Source of the DNA: Candidatus Spongiisociaceae bacterium
Lineage (GTDB): Bacteria; Actinomycetota; Acidimicrobiia; Spongiisociales; Spongiisociaceae
Length of the DNA: 64,000 bases
Reading direction: 5' to 3'
NCBI GenBank assembly: GCA_965262915.1
Contig: OZ253564.1
Span: 2,592,001-2,656,000, forward strand
This document shows positions 15,670-39,700 of this stretch, piece after piece (the stretch's first letter is position 1; the number at the start of each line of letters is the position of its first letter). Under the pieces are notes generated by a model. That model made no database searches. It saw only the letters and a program-made list of their open reading frames with translations, and was not told where the DNA came from. The position numbers and the translations under genes are program-made.

Positions 15670-17842
15670 TCATGTCGCGGTGGCGTCCACGGGTCGGAGC
15701 CCTCTGAAGAGGCCTTGGGGACGCAGCACGAGCGCCGCGACGAGAAGCACGAACGAAGCGACTACGGCCAGGTTGGTGCCGATGCGGGGAATGTAGATCG
15801 CCAGCCCGGCCTCGACCATGCCGAGCACCATGGCGCCACCCAGTGCCCCACGCACCGACCCCAGGCCTGCCATGGCGGTGATGGCAAAGGCCTTGAGGGT
15901 CAGCGGCGGGCCCTGGAAGGGTTGGACAGCCAGCACCGGGCTGATCAGGGCGCCTGCCACGCCGGTGATCCCGATGCAGATGGCGAAGGTCACCGCATAG
16001 ACCCTCGCGACATCGATGCCGACGATGCGAGCCGCCTCCCGGTTCTGGGCGGCCGCCCGGATGCTCTTGCCGAGTCGTGTCCGGGTCAGGAACATGCTGA
16101 GGCCCACGGCCATGACGAGTGCCACTATGAGGATCCAGAATCGGGTGACCGGTACCGTGACCTCGCCCGCGATAGGCCAAGCACCGTCAAGGCTGGTATC
16201 GGCGCGGCGGAAGTCAGCCGAGAACACCACCTTCATGACGTTCTGCAAGATGATCGCCACCGCGAACATCACCAGGAGGGAGACCAGATGCGAACGGTCG
16301 ATTACCCGGTTGATCAGGACGCGCTGTGTCGCATAGCCCAGGATCACCATCAATACGAACACCACCGGCACGGAGACGAACGGATCCACTCCCCAGAGGT
16401 CGTTGGCGAGCCAAGCCATGTAAGCGCCGATCATGACGAACTCGCCGTGGGCGAAGTTGATGACGCCCATCACACCCCAGATGATCGAGAACCCGAGGAC
16501 GAGGATCGTGTACATACCGCCGAGGGCGATGCCGTTGACCAGCATCTGTGCCATCCGCTGCGCCCCCGAGGGTGTTCCTCCCGGTCCCGGTCCGCCCAAG
16601 GGATAGCGGAGTTCGGACACCGCGGCCGCTGCGGGCGCCACTACCCGGACCTCGCCGTCCTGCACCTGCACTGTGCCCATCGGCTTCGCGGTGTTGACGC
16701 CTCGCTCATCGAAGGCGATCGGACCGTAGAACGTGTCCGCCTGCAGTGAGTAGAGGGCCTGGCGCACCGCGTCCGTTTCGGTTGTTCCGGCAGCCTCGAT
16801 GGCGATGTGCAAGGCCAGAGCGGAGGCGGTGGCGCTGGCCGCCTGGTAGACGGGCGGCTCACCCCAAAGTCTCTCGTAGTAGGCCGCATAGTCGGAGGCG
16901 CTTCCGAAGTAGGGCCCTTCATAGGCCATCACCGATTCCCACTGGGTGGGTCCCAGCACGCCTTCCACGTCCTCTCCCAGTTCCTCGATGAGCTTTTGGG
17001 TTGGACGGGCCGACCGTGATGAGCATCCCGCCGGGCGAGAACCCGAGTTCTTTGGCGGCGTTGACGAATAGCACCGCGTCGTTGTAATGGCCGCCGCCCA
17101 CGAACGCGTCGGGGTCCAGGTCGCGGAACTTGGTCATGATCGCCGAAGCGTCCTGGATGTCCTTGGGGTAGGTCTCGACGGCGAGTACCTCGATTCCGGC
17201 AGCCTCCAGATGACGACGGGCGCCGTTGGCTAGTGCCGTGGGGAAGGACGTGTCCTCGTAGGCGATCACGGCGGTGCGCGCTCCCCGGGCCGCAAGAGCC
17301 TCTACGCCCGACTTGGTGTAGTCACTGGCGATGGTGGCCACCAGGAAGAGGTTTCGGAAGCCGCGCTCGAACATGGTGTCGGAGGTTCCGTTCCCCTCCA
17401 CCATGATGACGTTGTTGGCCTCGGCTATGGCGCTCGCGCCGGTGGTGAGGCCGCTCGAGTAGGGGCCCAGCAGGAAGTCGACATTGTCCTCGTCGATGAG
17501 TTTCTGAACGAGGTTGGCGGCGGTGTCGGCGTCGGACTCGTCGTTGTAGTAGACGATCTCGACGGCGAAGCGGCGCCCGTCGATCTGGATGCCCCCGTAC
17601 TCCTCGTTCACCCGCGTCACCCAGGTGTCGTAGCCCTGGCGTGAGTCACGGCCCTCGACCGCGAACTTGCCGGTTTCGCTGAGAGCAGCCCCGAACCGGA
17701 TCGTGCCCGCGCGACCCTCGCCGGTGGCTACGTCCGGAGGGTCGCCGCTCGTGTCGGCGCTTCCGTCCTGCCCACCTCCGCACGCCAGCATCAACGCCAG
17801 ACCCGCCGCCAGCGTCGTCAGCTTCAAGATTGGTTTGCGCAC
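15670..17842 (-). pseudogene. Fused LivK-like substrate-binding lipoprotein and LivH-like permease, split by a 1-bp frameshift at about 16994-16997
   Basis: Starts at GTG 17842 with lipobox LMLAC and LLGPYSSG. Removing one A from CCA-AAA-GCT gives ...GPSNPKLIEELGEDVEGVLGP..., which runs through the SBP C-terminus straight into LivH motifs (NGIALGG, GVINFAHGEF). Confidence 0.75.
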
Positions 17843-18101
17843 AGAGGCCTGCTCTTGATTGCAACACCGGGAGTTTTCGAAACTGATGCGAGGATAGTTG
17901 CCGGTCTTACAGCGAGACATCCCGGCTTCCAAGCGTCGGATCAGCCGACCCCTTGCCTGTTTGTCGTCTCGATGGAGGGCCGGCGCGGCGCGACAGGCCA
18001 GGACCGCTTTCGAGGACGTGTGTGTGTGCGTCAATGGGGATGCGGCCAGGTGGACGGTTTCTTGAGGAGTGTTCCGTCAGTGCGGCTAGAGGGGTTCGCC
18101 A

Positions 18102-20107: not shown

Positions 20108-20461
20108 CTAGCAACTAAGCGGTCGCTTGAGGCCGGTCAGCATCCTACCAACCTCGTCGGCGCAGACCAGGACATCGTTAATCTGCTCGTCCTCGGCCAT
20201 TCCCAGGCGGACCGCCAAGATCAGAAAGGTTTCCGTCTCTGCAAGCGATCCGCTCGCAATTCCTAGAAACTGCAGGAACTCTCTGGTGCCTCGGCGCGCC
20301 GCTCCCTCAGCGATGTTCGCCGCGATCGCGCAGGCAGACCGCCGCACTTGCCCCCTCATGCCGTATTTTTCCGAAGGCGGGAACTCGGCCGAGAGCCGAT
20401 AGACCATCTCGGCCAGCTCGAGCGACTTCCGCCAAACTTCCAAATCCTGATAACTACCCAT
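20108..20461 (-). CDS. Four-helix-bundle protein (23S rRNA-IVP / Avd-like family)
   Basis: YQDLEVWRKS, FPPSEKYGMRGQVRRSA.AI.ANIAEG, EFLQFLGIASGSLAETET. Confidence 0.93.
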   Translation of the reverse strand: MGSYQDLEVWRKSLELAEMVYRLSAEFPPSEKYGMRGQVRRSACAIAANIAEGAARRGTREFLQFLGIASGSLAETETFLILAVRLGMAEDEQINDVLVCADEVGRMLTGLKRPLSC

Positions 20462-24200: not shown

Positions 24201-26019
24201 GCAACGTAGCGTAGAGGTTCTCGGCCACCTTGAGCGGTACCACCCGGGCCAGGCGCTCCACGTCGGCGTTCCGGAGTTGCTTGACCGATCCGAACTCGCG
24301 GATGAGGGCCTTCTTGCGGGCCGGACCTATGCCGTACACGTCATCGAGGATCGAGTCGATCATCCGCTTCCCGCGGAGTTGCCGGTGGTACATGAGAGCG
24401 AATCGGTGCGCCTCGTCACGGACCCGCTGGAGGAGGTGCAGTGCCGGTTGGTCCCGCGGGATCACGATGGGCTCCGGCTGTCCGGGTACGTAGACCTCCT
24501 CCATTCGTTTGGCCAGACCGGCTACCGGGACGTCGAGGTCGAACCGGTCGAGAACCTCAACCGCCCTTCCGATCTGTCCCGGCCCGCCGTCGATAAGCAC
24601 CAACGAGGGGGGATAGGCGAACTTCCCTCGCTCGGAGACGGGCTTCTCCAGGTCCTGCAGGTAGGCACTGAAGCGACGCCTGATCACCTCTTCGATGGAG
24701 GCGAAGTCGTCCTGACCCTGCACCGTGCGGATCCGGAACCGCCGGTAGTGGCTCCTGCGTGGGAGTCCGTCCTCCAGCACCACCATCGCTCCGACCGTGT
24801 GGCGCCCTTGGATGGTGGATATGTCGTAGGCCTCGATTCGCAACGGCGGCTCCGGCAGGGCCAGCACCGTCTGGAGGCTTCGCAGGTCCTTCGCCCGGGC
24901 GTTGTGGTCGGTTTGGCGACGGAGGCGGTGGCGTAGGAAGGCTTCGGCGGCGTTGGTCTTGGCGGTCTGCATGAGCCGGCGCTTGGCCCCCCGCTTGGGC
25001 ACCCGCAGCGTCACCCGGGATCCGCGCCGCCTCGACAGCATGTCCGCCCAGGGCTCATCTTCGGGGGGCAGCGCTTCCATTAGGATCCGGCGGGGCGGCG
25101 GTGAGGCCTCGTCGTAAAGGTCCCGCAGGACGGTGGCCATGATCTGTGCCGGGGTGACATCCTCCACCTTGTCGATGATCGATCCGTACCGTCCCACGAT
25201 CCGGCCGTTCCGTACCTTCAGCACCTGTACCGAGCACTCGAGGTCGTCGCTCTCGGTGGCCATCAGGTCGAAGTCCTCCGCACGGTCGGTTACCACCTCC
25301 TGGCGAGCGACAGCCCGGCGCACGTCGCGTATCTGGTCCCTGATCCGGGCGGCCCGCTCGTACTCCAGCATCTCCGAAGAGTCCAGCATCCGCCGATCGA
25401 GCCGCGCCACGAATTCCTCGGCGCTTCCGGTCAGAACCTGAGCCAGGCCGTCCACGTACTCGGCGTACGTATCTTGGTCGACGTATCCGACGCAAGGCGC
25501 CGAGCAACGATCGATCTCGTACTCGATGCACGGGCGTTCCTTCAGTTGGTGGCGGCGGAAGACGGTGTCGGAGCAGGTACGGACGGGGAGGGACTTGAGG
25601 AGCAGATCGAGGGTGTTGCGTATGGCGTATGCGTGGGCGAAGGGCCCGAAGTACTGGGTGCCCTTCTTCTTGGAACCCCGCACGACGCGGGCGCGGGGCC
25701 ACTGGTCGGAGCGGGTGATGGCCAGGTACGGGTAGCTCTTGTCGTCCCGCAGCCGGATGTTGAAGCGGGGCAGGTGCTCCTTGATCAGCGAATACTCGAG
25801 GAACAGGGCCGCTACCTCGCTGTCCACCACGATCCACTCCACCCGGTCCGAGGCCTCGATCATCGCCCGGGTCCGGGGGGCGAGGTCCCTCGTGAAGTAG
25901 GACGCCACCCGCTTGCGCAGCGACTTCGCCTTGCCCACGTAGGTCACCTGACCGTGGGCGTTCCGGAACAGGTATGCGCCAGGCGCGTCGGGTATCTCGG
26001 CGGACTGGGGTCGCTTCAC
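24187..26019 (-). CDS. uvrC: Excinuclease ABC subunit C
   Basis: GIY-YIG YVGKAKSLRKRV.SYF, DDKSYPY, RIEAYDIS, LIDGG.GQ, RDEAHRFA, HhH GIGP. Confidence 0.97.
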   Translation of the reverse strand: MKRPQSAEIPDAPGAYLFRNAHGQVTYVGKAKSLRKRVASYFTRDLAPRTRAMIEASDRVEWIVVDSEVAALFLEYSLIKEHLPRFNIRLRDDKSYPYLAITRSDQWPRARVVRGSKKKGTQYFGPFAHAYAIRNTLDLLLKSLPVRTCSDTVFRRHQLKERPCIEYEIDRCSAPCVGYVDQDTYAEYVDGLAQVLTGSAEEFVARLDRRMLDSSEMLEYERAARIRDQIRDVRRAVARQEVVTDRAEDFDLMATESDDLECSVQVLKVRNGRIVGRYGSIIDKVEDVTPAQIMATVLRDLYDEASPPPRRILMEALPPEDEPWADMLSRRRGSRVTLRVPKRGAKRRLMQTAKTNAAEAFLRHRLRRQTDHNARAKDLRSLQTVLALPEPPLRIEAYDISTIQGRHTVGAMVVLEDGLPRRSHYRRFRIRTVQGQDDFASIEEVIRRRFSAYLQDLEKPVSERGKFAYPPSLVLIDGGPGQIGRAVEVLDRFDLDVPVAGLAKRMEEVYVPGQPEPIVIPRDQPALHLLQRVRDEAHRFALMYHRQLRGKRMIDSILDDVYGIGPARKKALIREFGSVKQLRNADVERLARVVPLKVAENLYATLHGTA

Positions 26020-26087
26020 AGGATGGCTCCTCGGGTCCGAGGCTACCCGGTTCCGGTTGCGGGTCGGGTCACGGCCGAATGGCGTGG

Positions 26088-26129
26088 GGCCGGCGCATAC
26101 CACACCGCCATTTCACAGACAGACCACTA
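26088..26129. repeat. Right-end fragment of the 167-bp MITE family A
   Basis: GCCGGCGCATACCAC...TCACAGACAGACCACTA matches the right ends of the copies at 41856-42022 and 56995-57161. Confidence 0.75.
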
Positions 26130-26130
26130 A

Positions 26131-26274
26131 GAGGGCTAGCGGATAGGTGCTCACCTGGGGAGACACGGGCTGCGACATTTCAAGAGCCGCCCGCGATGAC
26201 CTGGGGTTTCCCGACCAGCAGCCGCCTCGGAATGACTACACGGGCGAGCGCGCTCCGCCTATCCGCTAGCCCTC
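26131..26274. mobile_element. 144-bp MITE, family C, with 17-bp perfect TIRs and a TAA target duplication
   Basis: GAGGGCTAGCGGATAGG (26131-26147) and CCTATCCGCTAGCCCTC (26258-26274); TAA at 26128-26130 and 26275-26277. Confidence 0.8.
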
Positions 26275-26288
26275 TAACTCCGGATGGG

Positions 26289-28370
26289 TCAGCCGAAGGC
26301 GCCGAACCAGCGGTCGTGAACCTGGCGGTAGACGCCGCTCTCGATCAGTTCCAGCAGCACCAGGTTGATCCTCTCGCGCAGATCGGTATCCTCCTCGCCG
26401 AGCATCATCCCGTACTGGACCTTTTCGAAGAGCGGACCGACGGTGGCTACCGCGCCTGCGCCCTCACGGGCGGCATGGAAACGCAGCACCGGCGCGTCGA
26501 AAACGATGGCCTCGACATCGCCCACAGCCAGGAGGTCGTAGGCCTCGTCGATCTCCTCCACCAGCACCGGACCGACCCCGAGCGCCACCATGTAGGTCTC
26601 CCCGGTGGATCCGGATACCGCGGCCACGCGATGGCCCGGCAGATCGGCGGGGCCCGAGATTTCGCCCCGCAACTCGTTCACGGCCAGCGAGGAGGCGATC
26701 GCGGCGGTGAAACTGGCGAAGACGAGGGTTCCGAGGGCGATCCAGACCAGGGCGAACACCCGCCCCAACCCGCCCCGTGCCACCTTGTCGCCGTACCCGA
26801 CCGTGCTCATGGTCACCACCGACCAGTAGAACGAGTCCCAGATTCCCCGGCGGTAGGGTACGGCGAAGTCGGGGTTGTGATGGCGTTCCAGCCACCAGAT
26901 CAAGTGGGCGGCCACCAGGACCGCCACCCCGAATACGATCAGCAGCCACGGCAGATCGGATGAGGCGATGGCTCGGAGGAAGGCCAGGATACGATCCCCG
27001 ATACCCTCCGAGGCGTCGGTGGGCGTCATGACGGTCAGGCCCGTGTCGAGCACCGGCAACGAGAAGTCCACCACCTCCTCACGTGGTCCGGTTATAACCA
27101 CGCCTCCCAGGCCCAACCGGGCGACACCGCGGGTTATGTCGTCGATCTGCTTGGCGACGGTATCCACCGCATAGATCTCCACCTGCATGCCGAGGCGGGC
27201 CCCGATGAGGCGCACCAGCGCCACCTCGAAGCCGCTGTAGGCGCGGTTCTCGTAGATCACGAAGGGTGGGAGGGTGCGCGCCGCCACCCTGAGTACACCT
27301 CCTGCTGCCATCGCATCCGTCCGCGAGTCGTCCAATGCCATGGCGTCGGGGTCCGAGGTCTCGATCCAACGGTTGACCGCAGCCTCGTTGGCCGCCACCC
27401 ACTCCCGGGCGTGGCGCCGGATATCCCCGGGATCCCCCTCGTCCTCGACCATCAGCGCGTTCTGGGCCGAGATGTCGTCGAGAGGGATCACGACCTGCTC
27501 CAGGAGCCTGCGAACCGACGGGTTGGCTTCCAGGAAGCCGGAGTTGGCCACCGCCCGGATGTCGTTGGGGGGCCAGCCGACCTGGCACGGATCGTTCGCG
27601 CACCCGGGAATGCCGGGAATGGTGGTCTGGTCGAGGAAGGAGACCTGACCCGGAGGAAGGGATGGGAACGGTGTCTCCAACCACACCACGTCTCTGCCGG
27701 GCACCAACTCGCCGACCGTCCAGTTAGGGGTCCATGTGTAGTACAGGACGGGTGCTCCGGCGTGGTAGCGGGTGATGGTCTCGGCTATCCGGGGCGAGTA
27801 GTCCCCTTGGACCTGTTCCACTGTTGCCGACAAACCGTAGGCGCCGAGATGGTGGTCGATGATCTTGGCGCAGGCCCAGCCGGCTTCACAGCCGACCAGG
27901 TCGGCCCGGCCGTCACCGTCGACATCGAACAGGGCGGCGATACGCGGATCAGCAAGATCCCCGAGGTTGGTGATACCGTGCGCCTCGGCGGTCACCCGAT
28001 CGACGAAATAACCCTGCAAGGCTCCGTCGTCGACCTGCTTTCCGACCGGCTCCACGACGTTGGGCTCGATGAACAGGTCGTGGGAGGGGAACCAGCCGTT
28101 GGCCCACATGTCCACATCACCGCTTGCCGCGGCTCGGTAGAAATCCGGGTTGTCCATGGTGACCGGATCCTCCACGCGGTAGCCCAGGCGTTGGAGCAGG
28201 ATCCGGTACACCTCTGCCTGGAACCAGCCGGTGTCCCACGTCGCTCGGGCCATCCGCACCGTTGGTTCGTCGGCCGACCCGTCATCCGACTGGGCTGTGG
28301 TCGTCCCGCCAAGCACAAGGGCTAGAACGGTTGCCGCGAGCACGGGAACGAGGATGACAGTACGGCGCAT
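26289..28370 (-). CDS. ProX-like betaine-binding domain fused to a GluR0-type ligand-gated K+ channel (S1-M1-P-M2-S2)
   Basis: Signal peptide; ProX motifs (RATWDTGWFQ, DGDGRADLVGCEAGWAC, YTWTPNW); S1 (LRVAARTLPPFV, ITGPREEVVDFS); TM segment; K+ filter TMSTVGYGD; S2 (GSTGE, IVFDAPVL, ERINLVLLELIESGVY...RWFG). Confidence 0.88.
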   Translation of the reverse strand: MRRTVILVPVLAATVLALVLGGTTTAQSDDGSADEPTVRMARATWDTGWFQAEVYRILLQRLGYRVEDPVTMDNPDFYRAAASGDVDMWANGWFPSHDLFIEPNVVEPVGKQVDDGALQGYFVDRVTAEAHGITNLGDLADPRIAALFDVDGDGRADLVGCEAGWACAKIIDHHLGAYGLSATVEQVQGDYSPRIAETITRYHAGAPVLYYTWTPNWTVGELVPGRDVVWLETPFPSLPPGQVSFLDQTTIPGIPGCANDPCQVGWPPNDIRAVANSGFLEANPSVRRLLEQVVIPLDDISAQNALMVEDEGDPGDIRRHAREWVAANEAAVNRWIETSDPDAMALDDSRTDAMAAGGVLRVAARTLPPFVIYENRAYSGFEVALVRLIGARLGMQVEIYAVDTVAKQIDDITRGVARLGLGGVVITGPREEVVDFSLPVLDTGLTVMTPTDASEGIGDRILAFLRAIASSDLPWLLIVFGVAVLVAAHLIWWLERHHNPDFAVPYRRGIWDSFYWSVVTMSTVGYGDKVARGGLGRVFALVWIALGTLVFASFTAAIASSLAVNELRGEISGPADLPGHRVAAVSGSTGETYMVALGVGPVLVEEIDEAYDLLAVGDVEAIVFDAPVLRFHAAREGAGAVATVGPLFEKVQYGMMLGEEDTDLRERINLVLLELIESGVYRQVHDRWFGAFG

Positions 28371-28579
28371 GGTTCTATCCGTCTGGGGGCACACCGAAGG
28401 TTAGCGATAGTTGAGCAGACGTGAAACGAACTATGAAGAAAATGAATGAATGGCCGACACGGTGTCGGCTCCCGGATGTAGGATTTTGTGACCGGAGGAA
28501 CTCCGAGAATGGCCGGTGACGGCTAGAGACAGCTACAGAGAGGAGCGACAGATGGTTTGTTGCGACACAGGTTCGCGCC

Positions 28580-30346
28580 ATGGCTGACGACCAGGACCTT
28601 GACCTCACCAAGATCTCCGAGGCCTACGAGGACTGGGAAGAGGAGCAAGAACGCCGCCGCGAGGCTGCCATCCGGGATCGTGGGCACTTCGAGGGTCTTC
28701 AGGTCGATGCTGACATCGACTTCTATCCCGAGGTGGCCGACCGGGAGCCCGGTGACAGGAACATAGTCAAGTGGGGATTCGACATACATCCCCAGGTGAC
28801 TTTCTCCGCCGCCGGATTCATGGTGGTGTTCATCCTGGCCACTCTGTTGTTCCCAGATCAGGCGAGCGGGGTGTTCGGCGCCGTCCTCAACTTCATCAAC
28901 GAGAAGGTGGGCTGGCTGTACATCATCTCGTTCAACATCTTCATCGGAGCCGCGCTCTACTTCGCGTTGGGCAGGTACGGCAAGATTCGACTGGGTGGTC
29001 CAAGGGCCCTTCCGGAGTTCTCCACCGGCGCCTGGTACGCCATGTTGATCTCCGCCGGTCTCGGCATCGGGCTGATGTTCTGGGGTGTGGCAGAGCCGAT
29101 CTTCCACCTGACAGCACCGCCTCCCCTGTTCGACGTAGAACCCTTGTCGGCGGGCGCGGCCAGAGCCTCACTGGCGACCTCCTACCTACACTGGGGGATT
29201 CATGGATGGGCGCTGTACGGCCTGGTAGCCCTCGCCCTGGGATTCTTCGCCTACAACCGAGGTCTGCCACTGACCTTCCGCTCGGTGTTCTATCCGATCC
29301 TCGGGCCGAAGATCTACGGCAGATGGGGCAATGCGATCGATACTCTCACCGTGGTGGCGACCCTCTTCGGTCTCGCCACCTCACTGGGATTCGGCGCGTC
29401 ACAGGCTGCCGCGGGGCTGAACAAGGTCTTCGGTCTCCCGGATACCCTGTTGGTCCAGATAGTGCTGATCGCAGGTATTACGGGGCTGGCCACCATCTCG
29501 GTGGTCGCCGGTTTGGATGCCGGGGTCAAGAGGCTCAGCCAGCTCAACGTGTGGCTGGCCGGAACCTTCCTGGTCTTCGTGCTCCTGGTCGGTCCCACCC
29601 TGTTGGTTCTCTCGCTGTACGTGGAGAGCATCGGTGTCTATCTCCAGATACTCCCGGAGTTCTCGTTCTGGAACGCCGCCTTGGTCGACACACAGTGGCA
29701 GCAGTGGTGGACCATCTTCTACTGGGGATGGTGGATCTCCTGGTCCCCCTTCGTCGGCATGTTCATCGCCCGGATATCCAAGGGGCGCTCGGTGCGGGAG
29801 ATGATCATCGGTGTGATCGTCCTTCCCTGCCTCCTGTGCTTCCTGTGGTTCGCGGTGTTCGGGGGAGCGGCCATGGATCTCCAGATGCGTGGTGAGCTGG
29901 ACGTGGCCACTGCGGTCAACGAGAACGTGGCGACCGCCCTGTTCGTGATGCTGGAGGCCTTCCCGTGGACTTACTTCGTCTCGTTAGTCGGCATCCTGTT
30001 GCTGATCTCGTTCTTCGTCACCTCGTCGGACTCGGGATCTCTGGTGGTGGACCACCTCACCTCAGGAGGAAAGCTCGACTCACCCAAACCGCAGCGCGTT
30101 TTCTGGGCGCTGATGGAAGGCTTGGTGGCCATAGTGCTGCTGATCGGAGGCGGCCTATCGGCCCTCCAGACGGCTGCCGTGGCTACCGGACTGCCTTTCC
30201 TCTTCGTGCTCCTGATCATGCTGTGGGCCCTGAAGAAGGCCTTCGATGAAGAGCTCGACCTGTTGGAGAGCCACTACGACGAGGCCATCTTCGAAGCCCA
30301 GCACAGCGGCTTGATCGAGCGACTGGGAAGTGGAGGTGAAAAGTGA
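28580..30346 (+). CDS. BCCT family transporter (betaine/carnitine/choline)
   Basis: AMLISAGLGIGLMFWGVAEP, HWGIHGWALY, WTIFYWGWWISWSPFVGMFIARISKGR, FFVTSSDSG. Confidence 0.96.
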   Translation: MADDQDLDLTKISEAYEDWEEEQERRREAAIRDRGHFEGLQVDADIDFYPEVADREPGDRNIVKWGFDIHPQVTFSAAGFMVVFILATLLFPDQASGVFGAVLNFINEKVGWLYIISFNIFIGAALYFALGRYGKIRLGGPRALPEFSTGAWYAMLISAGLGIGLMFWGVAEPIFHLTAPPPLFDVEPLSAGAARASLATSYLHWGIHGWALYGLVALALGFFAYNRGLPLTFRSVFYPILGPKIYGRWGNAIDTLTVVATLFGLATSLGFGASQAAAGLNKVFGLPDTLLVQIVLIAGITGLATISVVAGLDAGVKRLSQLNVWLAGTFLVFVLLVGPTLLVLSLYVESIGVYLQILPEFSFWNAALVDTQWQQWWTIFYWGWWISWSPFVGMFIARISKGRSVREMIIGVIVLPCLLCFLWFAVFGGAAMDLQMRGELDVATAVNENVATALFVMLEAFPWTYFVSLVGILLLISFFVTSSDSGSLVVDHLTSGGKLDSPKPQRVFWALMEGLVAIVLLIGGGLSALQTAAVATGLPFLFVLLIMLWALKKAFDEELDLLESHYDEAIFEAQHSGLIERLGSGGEK

Positions 30347-31281
30347 TCAAGAGATCAAGCACACTGATCGCCGCTGTCGCGGCTTTCGTGCTGGTGCTCT
30401 CGGCCTGCGGCGTCGAAGACGAAGGTGGGCCCGTGGCCATAGCCCGGGCCAACTGGGACTCCGGCTACATGCAGGCCGCCATCTATGCACAGCTGATCGA
30501 GGAACTCGGGTACGAGGTCACCGATCCCGCCGCCAGCACCCTTAGCCCCTATTCGTTCTATCCGGCGTTGGCCGCCGGCCAGTACGATCTGTGGGCCAAC
30601 GGGTGGTTCCCCCTCCACGATATCTACCTGGAAGGAGAAAACGTTACCGGCCAGGCGGTCGAACTACCCATCGAAGAGGTGGGTTGGCAAGTGGCCCAAG
30701 GGGCCACGGACGGCCTGATGATCGACAAGGCCACGGCTGACAGCTACGGCATCACCTCGATGGACGGCGTGGCTGCCAATGCCGGTCTCTTCGACGGGGG
30801 CGACGACGGCAAGGCCGATCTGATCGGATGCAACGTCGGATGGGGATGTGAAACCGCCATCAACGAACAGATCGCCAATGAGAGTTGGGGCGCCGGGGTC
30901 GAACAGATCTCCGGTGTTTACAACGACTTGGCCGAAGGCGTCGTGGCGAAGGTAGCCGCTGGTGAGCCGGCACTGTTCTACGCTTGGACACCCAACTGGA
31001 CGAACACCGTCCTGGTGGCGGGCGACAACGCGGTATGGCTGCAGTCCAACGTGAATGACATCCGGGCAGTAGCCAACAGTGACTTCCTGGATGCAAACCC
31101 GGATATCCGCCTTCTCCTCGAGGAGGTGGTCATTCCGTTGGGTGACATCGCAGCGCAAAACGCCAAGATGGCAGCCGGAGACTACACCGAGGCTGACGTC
31201 GAAGCTGACGCCCAAGCATGGATTGCCAGTAATCGGGACAAGGTCGACAGCTGGCTGGCAACAGCGCGAGCCGCCGGCTGA
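30343..31281 (+). CDS. ProX-like glycine betaine/proline substrate-binding lipoprotein
   Basis: GTG start overlaps the BCCT stop; lipobox LSAC; RANWDSGYMQ, DLWANGWFPLH, GCNVGWGC, YAWTPNW. Confidence 0.88.
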   Translation: MIKRSSTLIAAVAAFVLVLSACGVEDEGGPVAIARANWDSGYMQAAIYAQLIEELGYEVTDPAASTLSPYSFYPALAAGQYDLWANGWFPLHDIYLEGENVTGQAVELPIEEVGWQVAQGATDGLMIDKATADSYGITSMDGVAANAGLFDGGDDGKADLIGCNVGWGCETAINEQIANESWGAGVEQISGVYNDLAEGVVAKVAAGEPALFYAWTPNWTNTVLVAGDNAVWLQSNVNDIRAVANSDFLDANPDIRLLLEEVVIPLGDIAAQNAKMAAGDYTEADVEADAQAWIASNRDKVDSWLATARAAG

Positions 31282-31316
31282 TAGGTCGAGAACCGAGACA
31301 GCAAACAGCGAAAAAG

Positions 31317-31356
31317 AAGACCCGGCTCCTCATCGATTCATGAGGAGCCGGGTCTT
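31317..31356. terminator. Intrinsic terminator, probably bidirectional
   Basis: Perfect 17-bp stem AAGACCCGGCTCCTCAT / ATGAGGAGCCGGGTCTT between convergent genes, with an A-run on the left. Confidence 0.8.
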
Positions 31357-31377
31357 TGCGTGGCTGGGCGAACCTTG

Positions 31378-32076
31378 CTATCGCCGCCGCCACCGGATCG
31401 CCATGAGGTGAGGGATGTCCCGGTGCTTCGCGAGGATCGGATCCCTGGTGGCCGCGCCCGACCCGACGCCCTGCTCCCGCATCTCCTCCAGTATCCATCC
31501 CGCCGCGGCGGCTTCGGTCAGCAGCGTTCCGATCGGCCGATGGATGAACTCGACGGTCCGATCTCCGGCTGGATCACGGGTCTGCCCCTCAGTCAAATAG
31601 CTGCCGAATCTCCAGAACAGTTCACCGTCGGTCGGGTCGAGTACAGGTCCCGATTCCGGTGCCGTGTAGACCGGGTGGTTGATCACCGCCGCCAGAAATC
31701 CGCCCGGACGGGTCACCCGCGAAGTCTCCGCGAAGAAGAGTCGGGAGTCACCCAGGTGTTCGAGGGTCAGAACTATGTAGGCGCCGTCCACCGCCGCATC
31801 CCGCACGCACGCCATGTCCGGTAGATGGTTGATGAGGACAGGATGGCTGCGGGCGGCGATCCGGGCGAGATCGATGTTGAGGTCGACTCCGATAACACGC
31901 GCTCCCCTGGCGGCTACCAGATCCTGGATCCGGCCGTCGCCGCATCCGAGGTCGAGCAAGACCTGACCACCCACCGGCCCTAACACCTCCAGGAAGAGGG
32001 GTACCACCTCCTCCTCGTAGGCCGGATCGTCGGCCTCCACCAGCCACCATTCGGTCAGTTCGTTCCAGTCGCCCAT
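31378..32076 (-). CDS. Class I SAM-dependent methyltransferase
   Basis: LLDLGCGDG, IGVD, RVTRPGG, INHP; the start could be 32103. Confidence 0.88.
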   Translation of the reverse strand: MGDWNELTEWWLVEADDPAYEEEVVPLFLEVLGPVGGQVLLDLGCGDGRIQDLVAARGARVIGVDLNIDLARIAARSHPVLINHLPDMACVRDAAVDGAYIVLTLEHLGDSRLFFAETSRVTRPGGFLAAVINHPVYTAPESGPVLDPTDGELFWRFGSYLTEGQTRDPAGDRTVEFIHRPIGTLLTEAAAAGWILEEMREQGVGSGAATRDPILAKHRDIPHLMAIRWRRR

Positions 32077-32124
32077 CGGTCGATCAGGAGCGGGTCGCCA
32101 CACCCGCTCCTGGGGGCCCCAGGA

Positions 32125-32673
32125 TCATGCTCCGGTCACCCAACTCTCCACCATCCGGTGCTGCGCCCCCGTCTGGGGCGTTGGCTTGTAGCCGCCCTTG
32201 CGATCGCCCCGACGGCGAAGCGTGCGGAGCAGATCGATCACCTCATCCGGCGAGGCGTAGCCGTGTCTCCGGAGCCAGCAGCCCACCACCGTACCGGTCC
32301 GCCCGCTTCCGCCCCAGCAATGCACGTAGACGTTGCACCCATGAGCGAGGTGGCGGTCGATCACGTCGAGGGTGGTAACCATCTCGGTCTCGGTCGTCAC
32401 TCCGTTGTCCTCTATCTGGCGGCGTACCACGACCGCGTGACGATCGGTCGCGCGGATGTCGTAGCGGTCCATGTGTGCGTCGGTTCCGCCCGGATAGTCC
32501 TGGGTCAGGTTGACGAACACGTTGATGTCGGCGTCCAGCAACTGGCCCGCCTTGTCGTTCCACGGAGCAGGGTTGGGATAGGCGCCCGCCGCCAAGCGTT
32601 CGGGAATCACCCAGTAGGACCGATCGGTCGGGCCGCTCTCCGCGCTGCGCGCCAACGCGAGGTCCATGAACAT
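32125..32673 (-). CDS. Protein-tyrosine/dual-specificity phosphatase family protein
   Basis: CX5R motif VHCWGGSGRTG; SYWVIPERLAAGAYP. Confidence 0.9.
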   Translation of the reverse strand: MFMDLALARSAESGPTDRSYWVIPERLAAGAYPNPAPWNDKAGQLLDADINVFVNLTQDYPGGTDAHMDRYDIRATDRHAVVVRRQIEDNGVTTETEMVTTLDVIDRHLAHGCNVYVHCWGGSGRTGTVVGCWLRRHGYASPDEVIDLLRTLRRRGDRKGGYKPTPQTGAQHRMVESWVTGA

Positions 32674-32717
32674 CGTCCTCTGCCTCCATTCCGGCTGCCG
32701 GTACGTTGCCAGGCTAG

Positions 32718-33746
32718 ATGAGTAGTTCCAAGGGGTGTGGGTGGATAATCCACCGTTTTGGGGGTGGGGGTGTCCAGAATCCGGGGTGAAAAAACTTCCC
32801 CGATCCCGGAGGACCTGGTATGAACCCGGACCTGGACACCCTCGCTACCACAGTATATGTGACGGTTGATGATCTGTTGATCCAGCATCCCGAGTGGGTG
32901 CCCCAGCGACCCGCGGTGGGGATCGCTCCCAAGCTGTCCGACGCCGAGTTGGTCACCCTGGCGGTGATCCAGTCGCTGCTCAGATACACTTCCGAGGCCC
33001 GTTTCTTGCGCTACGCGCACGCCCATCTCAAACCATGGTTCCCGTATCTGCCTACCCGATCCGCCTACAACAGGCGGCTACGCCGCCTCGGCCTCACGAT
33101 GCAACACATCATCGCCTGGCTGGCCCGGGACTGCCCGTCGTGGCATGACGACCTGTGGTTGGTGGACTCCACGCCCGTCGAGTGCGGACGCAGCCGCACA
33201 ACCCAACAACGCTCTGACCTGGGGGGATGGGCCGAATACGGCTACTGCGCCTCCCACTCCCGCTACTTCTGGGGGCTGCGCTTCCACCTGGTGGCCACCC
33301 CATCGGGACTGCCGATAGCCTTCGCGTTGGCGCCGGCCAAAGCGGACGAACGCGACATCGCCACAGAAATGATCGCCCACGCCCGCCTAGCCCGAGCGGG
33401 CCAAACTCTCATGGCGGACAAAGGATACCGAAGCGCCAGCTTCGAGGAAGACCTCAACGAGGCCCACATGACCCTCATCCGCCCCGCCACAAAAACAGAA
33501 GCGCCCAGAAGCGGCCAGCGGTTCCTCCGACCCTTCCGCCACATCATCGAATCGATCTTCCAAACCTTCAAGGGCCAACTCGATCTCGAACGTCACGGCG
33601 GACGCACCAAACCGGGTGTTGTGGCACGTGTCCTCCAACCGATACTCGCCCTCACCACCGTCATCTGGCACAACGAAACCACCTAACGACCAGGCCCAGC
33701 ACGCTCCCTCATCGCATATGACCACTAAAACCTTGGAACTAACCAT
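32718..33746 (+). mobile_element. IS982-family-like insertion sequence
   Basis: TIRs ATGAGTAGTTCCAAGG / CCTTGGAACTAACCAT; CTAG on both flanks (32714-32717, 33747-33750). Confidence 0.85.
32820..33728 (+). pseudogene. IS982-family DDE transposase with a premature TAA at 33684-33686
   Basis: LSDAELVTLAV, VDSTPVEC, YGYCASHSRYFWG, ADKGY, IESIFQTFKGQL. The frame continues past the TAA as RPGPARSLIAYDH*, the usual C-terminus. Confidence 0.85.
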
Positions 33747-36563: not shown

Positions 36564-36703
36564 AGTGCCCGGGTGTGTTGCTGTACGGGGAAGCAGGGGT
36601 GGTGGCACCATGGTAGTGGCGGTCGGCAGTTGCCAGTAGCCCGGTCACCCCGAGTCCCGACTTGCGGAAGCCGGATACGGGCTACCTGTACCATCGCCTG
36701 CTC

Positions 36704-39700
36704 ATGAGTCGGTTACCCGAGTACGTGGTCTTCGACCTGGAGACGAACGCCGACCGACCTGATCGGGCCGAGCACGAGATCATCCAGATCGGCGCCGTAG
36801 CCGCAGTCGGGAACGGCGAGGTGGATACGTTCGAGGCTCTGGTCCGGCCCCGGCGACCGCTGCCCGCCCGGATCACCGAGCTGACCGGGCTGGTGTACGG
36901 CGATCTGGCGGGCGCGCCGCCTCTCGGGCGCGTCCTGGGCGAGTTCTTCGAATGGCTCGGCGACCGGCCCCTGATCGCCCACAACGGGTTCGGCTACGAC
37001 TTCGTGGTTCTCGACGCTGCCGCGGCCGCGGAGGGGATCGTCGTGCCGGCCGGGGACCGGCTCGACACCTTGGAGTTGGCTCACCTCGTTCACCCCCGGG
37101 CCGGGTCCGGTATCCGCAGCGTGGACGGTGCCTCTCCTCCACCCGGACGCAGCCTCGACCACCTGGCGGCGGCCTACGATCTGGCCGGCCGGGACCGCCA
37201 CGACGCTCTGGTCGATTCCCGGATGACCCGGGCTGTCATGCTGGGCCTGCTCGAGGAACTGGATCGGGATTCGCCGGTGCGCCGCTTGCAGCGGTGGATC
37301 CTCGGCGTGTCCGCTCATCCGTGGGCGGGATTCGTGCAGCCGCAGTCCCGACCGCCGCCGCTCGCCGACGTGGTCCCCTCGGTTCCCGTTCCCGGACCGA
37401 TCGTCCCGACCGGCCGGTTCGACGCGGCTGCGATCGTGAGGGCATTCCGGTCGGGTGGTCGGTTGATGACCGGTGGCCGGACGCCCCGCGCCCAGCAGGC
37501 CGAGATGGCGATATCGGTGTGCAGAGCCTTCACCACCCGCGGTGGGCGTCGGATGATCGAAGCTCCCACCGGGACCGGCAAGACGCTGGCCTACCTGGTT
37601 CCCGCCATCGAGATGGCTCGGGCTTCGGGCCGCACCGCGGTGGTCACCCCACACTCGCGGGTACTGCAGGACCAGATCCTGACCACTCTGGAGCAACTCG
37701 AAACCGAGATCGGGCCCTTCACGAAGGTGGTGCTCAAGGGCAGGCAGAACTACATCAGCCTCAAGTCTCTCGATGCGGAACTCACCGGGATGGAGGAGGA
37801 ATCGGATCGCAGCCCGGTCCGCCATCCCACCGCCATGGCTCTGGCCATCCTGTGCGGATGGGTGGCCGAGACGCCCAGCGGCGACTGGGCGGACCTGCGA
37901 ACGAGGGCGCTGGAGGATCACCTGACTCCTCTGAGGTTCCTGCGGTGGAGGTTGCGAGTCGATACCCGGCCCGGGCCGGTGCGGGACCGCCTCGATGCGC
38001 TCGACTTCTACCGCCGCGCCTCGGGAACTCTGAGGACCGCCCACGTGGCCGTGCTGAACCATGCCCTCCTCGCCACGGGTCCGGAACTGGGGGAGGGATC
38101 CTTCAACCTGATCGTGGACGAGGCCCACGGGTTGGAGGACTCGGTCACCTCTGCGGCGACCCTCCAGGTGGAGGGAGAGCACCTAGAGAGGATATGCGAC
38201 GCTCTATGGGACCCGGAGACACGACGGGGTTTGGCGACGAGGCTGGCGGTTGCCATCGGGGTGGGTCTCCGGGACCGCAGGATCGATCGGATCCGCCGCG
38301 CCGGCGTCGAGGCCCGAGCGGCAATCAGGCGTTTCTCGGCGCCCCTGACGGAGTACGTGCGCGACCGGACCGGCGTGAGGCGGGAGGAAGCGGCGCGCTA
38401 CGGCTCCTCCTACCGGATCCGCCGGGGGGTCGACACCTACCACCCCTCGTACCGGACCGTTCTCGAAGCAGGCCGAGCCATGAGGCGCGCCCTCCGCGAG
38501 GTGACCGAGGCCCTTGACGCCATCAGCGTGCCGGAGCAACTCCACGGCCGGTACCGCCGCGACGCTCTGGAGGATGAATTGGCCCGGTTCGGCCGGGAGA
38601 TCTCCGACGCGGCCCTGCTGGTCCACTCCGTGCTCTCAGCCGCGGCCGACATGCGTCTCTTCGACGACGACCTGAGCGATCACCACTTGATCGACTGGAT
38701 CAACATCGCCGAGGTCTCCTTCGAAACGTTCGGGAGGGGACGCGACGGATTCGAGGCCGTTGGCGGGACCGCCGCGGAGGCCGGCCGCAGCGGGCAGGGA
38801 GAGTGGCGCTGGGCGCTACGGCGGGCTCCGCTGTCGGTGGCGGGCCTGCTGTCCGAACTGTGGGAAAGGAGCCACTCGGTGCTGCTCACCTCGGCCACGC
38901 TTCGGGCCGGTGACGACTTCGGTTACCTGGTCGGCCGCCTGGGACTCGGCTCGGTCGAGTCGAAGGTGATCGACACGCCGTTCGGGAATCTGCCCGAGAA
39001 CCATCTCCTCCTGCTGACCGACTACCTGCCCGCGCCACGGGGGCAGCTCATGGATCGGTTCACCGAGACCGAGGCCACCGAGATACCCAGGCTGTGCGTG
39101 GCGAGCGACGGCGGGGCACTTGTGCTCATGACGGCCCGGGCCCGGCTGGACTACGTGCGGGATCACGCCCGTGCCCATCTGGGGCCTCTCGAACTGGAGC
39201 TCATGGCCCAGGGAGACGGACCGTCGCCGGCTCTCGTGGAGCGGATGCGAAACGATCGGGACTCCTGCCTGCTCGGACTGCGGTCGTTCTGGGAGGGGAT
39301 CGATATCCCCGGCGACGCCCTGAGGTTGCTGGTGGTGGAGAAGGTTCCGTTCGATTCGATCGGCGATCCGGTGGTGGGTGCTCGCAGCGATCTGATCGAG
39401 ATGAGGGGACGGGACCCGTTTGCCGACTACATGGTCCCGCGGGCTGCCATCGCCTTCGCCCAAGGGGTGGGACGCCTGATCCGCACTGCCGACGACAAAG
39501 GCGTCACCGTCGTGCTGGACAGCCGCCTGCGCCGCCCCATCCCCTACCGCGACGTGCTGCTGCGCGGCCTGACCGGACCCCCATCCAAGCGGGAGATCGA
39601 CACTCCCGAGGCTGCCTACGACGCCATCACGGATCACCTGGGTCTCGACCTCGACCGGGTCCGGTGGGAGAGGATCCGCCGGATACCCGGGATCGAGACG

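Follow-up and report, generated by a model that had tools for sequence, protein, structure and literature searches.

GluR0 of Synechocystis itself has no amino-terminal domain beyond its signal peptide. Together with its Nostoc punctiforme homologue (structure 2pyy) and the "Group 1" proteins of Ger et al. (2010, PMC2950845), it is built in the order S1-M1-P-M2-S2, has a K+ filter, has no helix after S2, and carries an arginine in S1 and an aspartate in S2. This order, the filter, the absence of a helix after S2 and the two residues are found likewise in the product of a gene located at positions 26289 to 28370, minus strand, of the DNA analyzed here, a stretch of 64,000 nucleotides from a Candidatus Spongiisociaceae bacterium that we refer to as the window. 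Unlike the GluR0 group, however, the predicted protein has an extra ProX/OpuAC domain of ~300 residues ahead of S1. We consider it probable, with some reserve, that this protein is the subunit of a tetrameric ligand-gated K+ channel of the GluR0 type, with two stacked extracellular clamshell sensors, and that it belongs to a K+/osmolyte module.

The two halves of the protein have separate precedents. Escherichia coli ProX (structure 1r9l, with glycine betaine) is the binding protein of the ProU ATP-binding cassette (ABC) transporter, and its fold, tryptophan box, histidine and cysteine pair are shared with the amino-terminal domain of the fusion. In contrast to E. coli ProX, the fusion is not a free periplasmic protein, has no ProV or ProW genes nearby, and is covalently joined to an ion channel. 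Eukaryotic ionotropic glutamate receptors (iGluRs) with an amino-terminal domain (ATD) have the same three-layer plan of outer clamshell, ligand-binding domain (LBD) clamshell and pore, with a flexible linker to S1, and in NMDA receptors the ATD clamshell binds allosteric modulators. The fusion differs from them in that its outer domain is of the OpuAC type and not of the LIVBP/ANF_receptor type, it has neither M4 nor a cytoplasmic tail, and its pore has a K+ filter, whereas the iGluR pore is cation-unselective. In OpuA-type ABC transporters (P0190, P0247), OpuAC is tethered to the permease domain BPD_transp_1; here it is tethered to a K+ channel. An engineered chimera of the ectoine-binding protein EhuB with the GluR0 pore is functionally coupled, according to the part of the preprint available to us (Bernhard and Laube, bioRxiv 2021, 10.1101/2021.01.27.428399), which indicates that osmolyte-binding clamshells can gate a GluR0-type pore. 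As far as that part describes it, the binding protein of this man-made construct replaces the LBD, whereas in the present protein ProX is added onto an intact LBD, and the fusion is natural and widespread.

Full-text literature searches found no paper on a natural ProX-GluR0 fusion, although a listing in supplements would have escaped them, and no ion channel is listed in a review of the part that binding proteins play in signalling. The words "Betaine", "OpuAC" and "ProX" are absent from the main text of Ger et al. (PMC2950845). The combination of domains given below is almost certainly already listed in InterPro as an architecture.

The open reading frame extends from 26289 to 28394 on the minus strand, and translation from the ATG at 28370 gives a protein of 693 residues with the amino terminus MRRTVILVPVLAATVLALVLGGTTTAQS. 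This start, beginning MRR, agrees with the consensus start of 33 relatives. The coordinates given in the initial annotation are exact, and the layout it had read from the sequence, signal peptide, ProX, S1, M1, pore (TVGYGD), M2 and S2, was confirmed by Pfam, by NF008334, by the solved structures 1r9l and 2pyy, and by Foldseek. The features of the gene are as follows.

26289-28370, minus strand: whole gene of the 693-residue ProX-GluR0 fusion channel (open reading frame, translation, Pfam and NCBIfam; start equal to the homologue consensus)
28290-28370, minus strand: signal peptide, residues 1-27, with a hydrophobic core at 1-26 followed by TTAQS (hydropathy and sequence; cleavage site putative)
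27354-28262, minus strand: ProX/OpuAC clamshell, residues 37-339, containing the aromatic box W93/W165/W213, H97 and the cysteine pairs C161/C167 and C257/C262 (NF008334, 1r9l, Foldseek, residue conservation)
27297-27353, minus strand: linker between ProX and S1, residues 340-358, ~20 residues (low pLDDT, low conservation)
26991-27296, minus strand: S1 half of the amino-acid-type LBD, residues 359-460, with T427 and R430 (2pyy domain 1 at 360-459; Lig_chan-Glu_bd at 361-450)
26673-26990, minus strand: channel module of M1, pore helix, filter and M2, residues 461-566 (Pfam, hydropathy, model helices)
26787-26804, minus strand: K+ selectivity filter TVGYGD, residues 523-528 (translation)
26292-26672, minus strand: S2 half of the LBD, residues 567-693, with S588 and D625 (2pyy domain 2 at 569-690)
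26289-26291, minus strand: stop codon of the fusion gene

Pfam matched OpuAC at residues 37-326 (E 5.6e-50), Ion_trans_2 at 483-562 (E 1.2e-14) and Lig_chan at 475-578. The SBP_bac_3 match, 362-690, is interrupted by the membrane part covered by Ion_trans_2 and Lig_chan, which is the S1-M1-P-M2-S2 order. The NCBIfam equivalog model for ProX, NF008334, scored 351.9 bits over residues 12-339 against a cut-off of 215. Within residues 1-340, neither ANF_receptor nor Peripla_BP_6 was matched by Pfam, OpuAC being found instead. The ProX clamshell had been proposed as an independent solution standing in the place of the ATD, and this assignment stands, as the outer domain is of the OpuAC type and not of the LIVBP type. 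Hydropathy revealed only three hydrophobic stretches, the signal peptide at 1-26, M1 at about 467-496 and M2 at about 533-564. By hydropathy and in the structure model there is no hydrophobic segment beyond residue 564 that could be M4, and the protein stops where S2 stops.

Searches against solved structures gave the same division. By sequence, residues 38-337 matched E. coli ProX 1r9l (E 1.7e-66), and the best solved match of residues 360-459 and 569-690 was 2pyy, the ligand-binding core of the Nostoc GluR0 homologue; the E-values of the domain and structure matches exclude chance similarity. An AlphaFold2 model built from a 66-row alignment had a mean predicted local distance difference test score (pLDDT) of 89.3 and a predicted template modeling score (pTM) of 0.54, with the linker residues 344-355 below pLDDT 50, from which we take the domains to be well defined but not their mutual arrangement. 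Helices were modeled in the membrane part at 473-495, 506-522 and 534-569. The top Foldseek match was betaine-bound ProX 1r9l, with a template modeling (TM) score of 0.90 by target length, a root-mean-square deviation of 2.4 Å over 307 columns and 39% identity. The remaining part, LBD plus transmembrane domain, matched the corresponding part of AMPA-receptor chains, and NMDA and delta receptor chains were also among its structural matches.

The ProX part (residues 30-345) was also docked onto the channel part (356-693). The median interface score (ipSAE) was 0.58 (runs 0.59, 0.38 and 0.58), and the best of three controls gave 0.00; at least 83% of contacts agreed between runs, and partner pLDDT was at least 87. 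For calibration, 58 of 80 solved complexes had passed the mark, as had 2 of 110 mismatched pairs; in the range up to ipSAE 0.60 lay only 7 of those 80 complexes and both passing mismatches. Since the docking used a custom alignment, these counts apply only roughly.

The fusion was then followed through other genomes. Of 8000 candidates scored in a word-indexed protein search, 627 reached an E of 0.001 or lower, and the best 120 of these are 622-733 residues long, 71-100% identical to the window's protein, and all carry PF04069, PF00497 and PF07885. An exhaustive search of 1.84 billion cluster representatives gave 7769 matches at E up to 0.001, and among the top representatives were eleven full-length fusions of 33-49% identity in alignment A2 (P0124, P0126-P0133, P0136 and P0125). 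The window's own family was represented by 24 other genomes. The full-length gene is present in 19 of them, and in a further one it is divided between two contigs; a pair of genomes from a single genus contain ProX paralogues only, and one genome has a 397-residue GluR0-like channel without ProX. The latter gene (L020 7969-9162, plus strand, genome G016) encodes SBP_bac_3 and Lig_chan, is 36% identical to the channel part and lies beside an aminotransferase gene. None of 16 genomes from other families of the same order matched at E 1e-10. Full-length matches in the public species set, with taxa as named in the sequence records, came from Acidimicrobiia (among them Candidatus Aldehydirespiratoraceae and Candidatus Poriferisocius), Nitriliruptorales (54%) and Desulfobacteraceae/"delta proteobacterium" (49%), and further ones from seven cyanobacterial metagenome-assembled genomes (MAGs; 39-48%), one Chloroflexota (44%), one Bacteroidetes (40%) and one unassigned MAG. 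The distribution of the fusion is patchy but wide.

An assembly chimera or a read-through of two genes would be the trivial explanation of such a protein, and nothing spoke for it. The fusion is one unbroken frame in a 5.06-Mb single-contig genome (G000:C1:2592001-2656000), more than 140 sequences, drawn from many assemblies and belonging to several phyla, share the architecture, and a query spanning the junction (residues 300-480) matched single open frames in 4 genomes, from 4 different families, of an even phylum sample of 400. We regard an artefact as extremely improbable. Absence of the fusion from all homologs had been named at the outset as the sign of a chance join; the fusion is present in all 120 of the best homologues listed and in other phyla. 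Judged from this conservation, the fusion is old and selected, not a chance join. It is a real, conserved gene that departs from known GluR0 channels by its ProX domain, and the function discussed below is a proposal.

A single origin was considered and not retained. A rapidly built tree of the channel part, with 63 rows (26 fusions and 37 GluR0-only proteins), placed 19 fusions in one starred clade of 22, but the fusion label has to change 5 times or more along the tree, starred branches forcing 4 of these changes, and the number of gains and losses is not resolved. One row of this clade labeled GluR0-only, P0180, begins with a ProX tail and is probably a truncated gene call.

Database names do not convey the architecture. 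Every source name seen, for 9 of the 120 best homologues listed and 2 of 10 representatives, includes the ProX or betaine-binding part, and only the JGI name of P0130 adds a channel ("voltage-gated ..."). The name "ABC transporter substrate-binding protein ProX" covers 44% of the protein, and no ABC genes are adjacent, which makes it misleading.

The ligand site of the outer domain was compared residue by residue with that of E. coli ProX. In the printed alignment, W65, W140, W188, H69 and C136/C142 of the E. coli protein, numbered by our own count along its chain, are identical to W93, W165, W213, H97 and C161/C167 here. The roles of the box residues in ProX have reportedly been described by Schiefner and colleagues in 2004. 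Trp65 and Trp188 form part of a betaine box held by cis-prolines, as given in the part of the source available to us (PMC8601584). P95 and P215 follow the counterparts of these two tryptophans, align in sequence with the E. coli cis-prolines and are conserved. Residue counts were made over 144 aligned fusions, namely the window's protein plus 120 close relatives (n = 121) and 23 distant ones.

W93: 121 of 121 close, 20 of 23 distant
W165: 121 of 121 close, 19 of 23 distant
W213: 121 of 121 close, 19 of 23 distant (F in 3)
C161 and C167: each 121 of 121 close, 23 of 23 distant
H97: 105 of 121 close (Q in 16), 18 of 23 distant

The full aromatic box (W/W/W or W/W/F) is retained in 16 of 23 distant fusion proteins. 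Mean identity in the ProX domain is 77% among close and 51% among distant relatives, compared with 75% and 69% (close) or 39% and 42% (distant) for the two LBD halves. Because the site features are all present and the ProX clamshell is under strong purifying selection, the outer domain is very probably a binder of glycine betaine, proline betaine or a related solute with a quaternary-ammonium or sulfonium group. The betaine-type ligand class suggested by the initial annotation gains support from this conservation of the box.

These counts also bear on the idea that ProX is only a structural amino-terminal layer, serving assembly, stability or surface positioning with no ligand role. The amino-terminal domains of AMPA-type receptors act mainly in assembly, and the seven distant members with partial loss of the box still keep the ProX domain. 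On the other hand, the box residues and both cysteine pairs are invariant or nearly so in the window's clade, and the domain scores above the cut-off of the ProX equivalog model and can be superposed on ProX with bound betaine. A purely structural role would not lead one to expect a ligand pocket conserved to this degree, and we hold that role to be quite unlikely.

The inner sensor retains the amino-acid site of prokaryotic iGluRs, in which the S1 arginine binds the α-carboxyl group and the S2 aspartate the α-amino group, as stated in the part of Ger et al. (2010, PMC2950845) at hand. R430 and D625 occupy these S1 and S2 positions. The counts for this site and for the filter were as follows.

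R430: 121 of 121 close, 22 of 23 distant
D625: 117 of 121 close, 18 of 23 distant
S588: 111 of 121 close (T in 10), 19 of 23 distant (T in 4)
TVGYGD: 121 of 121 close, 21 of 23 distant

Apart from the signal peptide, no stretch is less conserved than the linker between the two sensors (49% mean identity among close relatives), and the spacing from W335 to V362 is fixed at 25-27 residues in the 121 close sequences.

The channel gene stands next to a transporter gene on the opposite strand, which is followed by a second ProX-type gene.

28371-28579, no strand: intergenic spacer of 209 bp separating the divergent channel and BCCT genes
28580-30346, plus strand: BCCT-family transporter, 588 residues (Pfam BCCT, E 2.2e-185)
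30343-31281, plus strand: OpuAC/ProX-type lipoprotein, 312 residues (Pfam OpuAC, E 1.1e-35; NF008334, 228.9 bits against a cut-off of 215)

The transporter scored 491.7 bits with TIGR00842 (cut-off 407.55); the best named model was betaine_BCCT with 541 bits, under its cut-off of 650. It is the sole BCCT match in the whole genome, in which TrkH and Ion_trans_2 outside the channel gene each had one match. The start of the lipoprotein gene overlaps the BCCT stop by 4 bases, so the two are translationally coupled. We read LVLSAC in the lipoprotein as a probable lipobox, and NGWFPLHD, GCNVGWGC and YAWTPNW as putative box motifs as in the amino-terminal domain of the channel, of which it is a paralogue (45% identity to channel residues 7-233). 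The initial annotation had taken the divergent neighbors, a BCCT and a ProX operon, as support for the ligand class. The divergent BCCT and OpuAC genes are indeed conserved, but the "ProX operon" consists of BCCT and a coupled OpuAC lipoprotein and is not of the ABC type ProVWX. The genes downstream of the channel gene on the same strand are uvrC, rapZ, pgk and tpi. A scan of 25900-31500 against Rfam found no RNA family at E up to 0.1, and a scan of 26000-28700 with sigma-70 promoter and terminator consensus sequences found none.

The BCCT-OpuAC pair was present in 7 of 7 loci fetched from relatives. In the public species set we looked at 42 loci with a full-length fusion; these were among the best 80 of 567 confirmed stretches, do not amount to a census and may overlap the 7. 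BCCT followed by OpuAC lies beside the channel gene in 28 of 29 loci of the actinobacterial type, with the pair divergent from the channel gene in 19, on the same strand in the order BCCT-OpuAC-channel in 5 and convergent in 4; the lone exception is a 5.6-kb contig. Two of three loci of the Desulfobacteraceae type have a more distant BCCT ~1 kb upstream. BCCT-OpuAC pairs without a channel gene were found at L069, L074 and L076.

The pair is kept across Acidimicrobiia and Nitriliruptorales. We know of no BCCT carriers that use binding proteins. The TAXI-GltS system, described in 2025, indicates that new binding-protein-dependent secondary transporters are still being found (PMC12344293); BCCT is not mentioned in the part of that paper at hand. 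The conserved BCCT-OpuAC pair may be a binding-protein-assisted BCCT system. An apparent BCCT-OpuAC fusion in genome G010 was discarded, as the 953-residue frame at L015 holds OpuAC only and BCCT lies in another frame. We likewise considered the adjoining lipoprotein as the donor of the channel's ProX domain, but free ProX proteins of Chloroflexaceae and Acidobacteria MAGs score higher against that domain (347-402 bits, 52-56% identity) than the neighboring lipoproteins (212-333 bits), so a donor role of the neighbor is not supported.

With a transporter gene adjoining and databases calling the protein ProX, the fusion might be a tethered binding protein that hands betaine to a BCCT or ABC transporter, the channel part being mainly an anchor; fusions of OpuAC to membrane proteins do exist, as in P0190 and P0247 (OpuAC with BPD_transp_1). 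The adjoining BCCT, however, already comes with a coupled OpuAC lipoprotein, the genes beside the channel gene include neither an ABC permease nor an ATPase of the ProV/ProW type, and the fusion occurs without a nearby BCCT in 12 of 42 loci. Nor would an anchor need an invariant filter or an intact amino-acid site, whereas TVGYGD and R430 are invariant among close relatives and the membrane module is the most conserved part of their protein (88% mean identity). This explanation appears very unlikely.

A different possibility is that one clamshell senses a betaine-type compound and the other an amino acid in the surroundings, here probably a sponge host, and that channel opening is an electrical signal tuning uptake or metabolism, with no special role in K+/osmolyte exchange. 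The closest relatives include MAGs with names such as Candidatus Poriferisocius, sponge-metagenome RNA runs contain the locus, the window's genome (G000) has many ProX paralogues with 7 matches, and the fusion is found without a BCCT neighbor in cyanobacterial, Bacteroidetes and Chloroflexota loci. As such a host-metabolite or nutrient sensor would share the molecular mechanism, two sensors and a K+ pore, the structural evidence counts equally for both. What separates them is the linkage to BCCT-OpuAC in 28 of 29 actinobacterial-type loci, which has survived three gene orders and thereby points to a function tied to betaine-type transport and not to general sensing. There is also no downstream signalling partner nearby, the neighbors being uvrC, rapZ, pgk and tpi. 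We judge a pure sensor of this kind to be unlikely. The ProX family is strongly expanded in this lineage. Tandem double-ProX proteins of ~705-816 residues, with two OpuAC domains in one frame, recur in the window's genome and its relatives, at G000:C1:1884342-1886285 and at loci L086, L090 and L095.

For the two-sensor K+ channel that we favor, the following mechanism is proposed. By homology, the protein would form a tetramer in which the S1/S2 clamshell, wired to M1 and M2, gates the K+ pore, and the pore filter would face the cytoplasm as in GluR0. The inner sensor, S1/S2, would be an α-amino-acid-binding domain and the primary gate as in GluR0, and the outer sensor an intact ProX-type domain that would take up a betaine-type solute in its tryptophan box. 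Because ProX is joined to S1 only through a flexible linker of ~20 residues, it would most likely act allosterically on the ligand-binding layer, raising or lowering the open probability as the amino-terminal clamshells of NMDA receptors do. From the linkage of the fusion to BCCT-OpuAC it seems that K+ movement is coupled to the sensing of a betaine-type solute outside the cell while that solute is imported; the solute would be imported by BCCT, and the channel would adjust K+ flux and membrane potential in step. K+ is taken up after osmotic upshift and is later exported as compatible solutes accumulate, according to the part of the source available to us (PMC8844918), and the proposed module fits this sequence of K+ first and then exchange for compatible solutes. 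That the chains form a tetramer and that the sensors are coupled allosterically is inferred, as are the physiological role and the direction in which K+ flows, and the ligands named for ProX and for the LBD are presumed ones.

Several observations weigh against this proposal. For all members of the family, gating or modulation of the K+ current by betaine is a prediction. How ProX and LBD are placed relative to each other is modeled with low confidence, and the outer domain could swing freely; the docking of ProX on the channel part supports an interaction weakly, and as a weak result it also counts on this side. The aromatic box is incomplete in 7 of the 23 distant relatives, two of which, P0125 and P0136, also have the non-K+ pore sequence REGWGK and no W93, so the family is not uniform in ligand or ion. 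No BCCT was found in the available flanks of 7 cyanobacterial loci, 1 Chloroflexota locus, 1 Bacteroidetes locus and 1 unassigned locus; since the linkage is not universal, the osmolyte-exchange module may be a lineage-specific use of the channel. When the membrane potential is more negative than the K+ equilibrium potential, an open K+ channel takes K+ up, and the direction of flow is not deducible. Lastly, contigs from RNA libraries of sponge metagenomes (X19 and X20; X17 and X18 are runs only guessed to be RNA) covered BCCT-OpuAC well and bridged the junction at 30343, while the adjoining channel gene was sparsely covered by a few short, low-depth pieces (26772-26941 and 28154-28379 in X19, 27373-27541 in X17, 26776-26916 and 27426-27513 in X18). 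Contigs from such runs cannot rank genes, DNA carry-over is possible and uncovered parts prove nothing, so that expression is neither shown nor excluded.

A stronger form of the two-sensor proposal is possible but rather doubtful. In this form the channel would be a natural coincidence detector, opening only when an amino acid on the LBD and a betaine-type solute on ProX are both present. It would work within a three-part osmolyte-exchange unit in which the OpuAC lipoprotein feeds BCCT, forming a new class of binding-protein-assisted secondary transporter, and the channel moves K+ to balance the charge and osmotic load of betaine import. Evolved independently in bacteria, it would then parallel the three-layer design of NMDA receptors with its allosteric modulation.

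If the two-sensor channel is as proposed, bacteria would have a natural channel whose LBD is topped by a modulatory clamshell, taken from another class of binding proteins than the animal ATD, and the three-layer receptor plan would have arisen more than once. Being small, K+-selective and free of M4, the channel would serve as a model for communication between an outer clamshell and the gate, and it would provide a direct protein link from an external compatible solute to K+ flux, of interest for both glutamate-receptor evolution and osmoregulation.

Some further observations concern variant fusions and other genes of the window. P0125 (1008 residues) has two tandem OpuAC domains ahead of the channel, of which the distal one keeps the tryptophan, and P0136 has 689 residues. 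Both are metagenome representatives of a sub-branch with the REGWGK filter, and they may be neighbors, as they carry the same longest-contig figure (29437). Between the OpuAC gene and uvrA, at 31378-33686, lie genes for an S-adenosylmethionine-dependent methyltransferase, a dual-specificity phosphatase-like protein (PTP-SAK / Tc-R-P) and a DDE transposase. Relatives share the methyltransferase (loci L013, L017 and L019) and the phosphatase (L013), and no transposase was seen at these loci. A 117-residue frame at 20108-20461, minus strand, matches the "23S rRNA intervening sequence protein" family (E 4.9e-35), with no rRNA nearby. At 15670-18034, minus strand, a Peripla_BP_6 domain is split over the overlapping frames 18034-16919 and 16968-15670, the second running into a BPD_transp_2 branched-chain amino-acid permease, which represents either a frameshift or a fusion of binding protein and permease. 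Beside uvrA, a 1726-residue frame at 36662-41842, plus strand, combines an RNase_T exonuclease, a DinG-like Helicase_C_2, DEAD/Helicase_C and a RecQ zinc-binding domain in an unusually large multi-helicase fusion.

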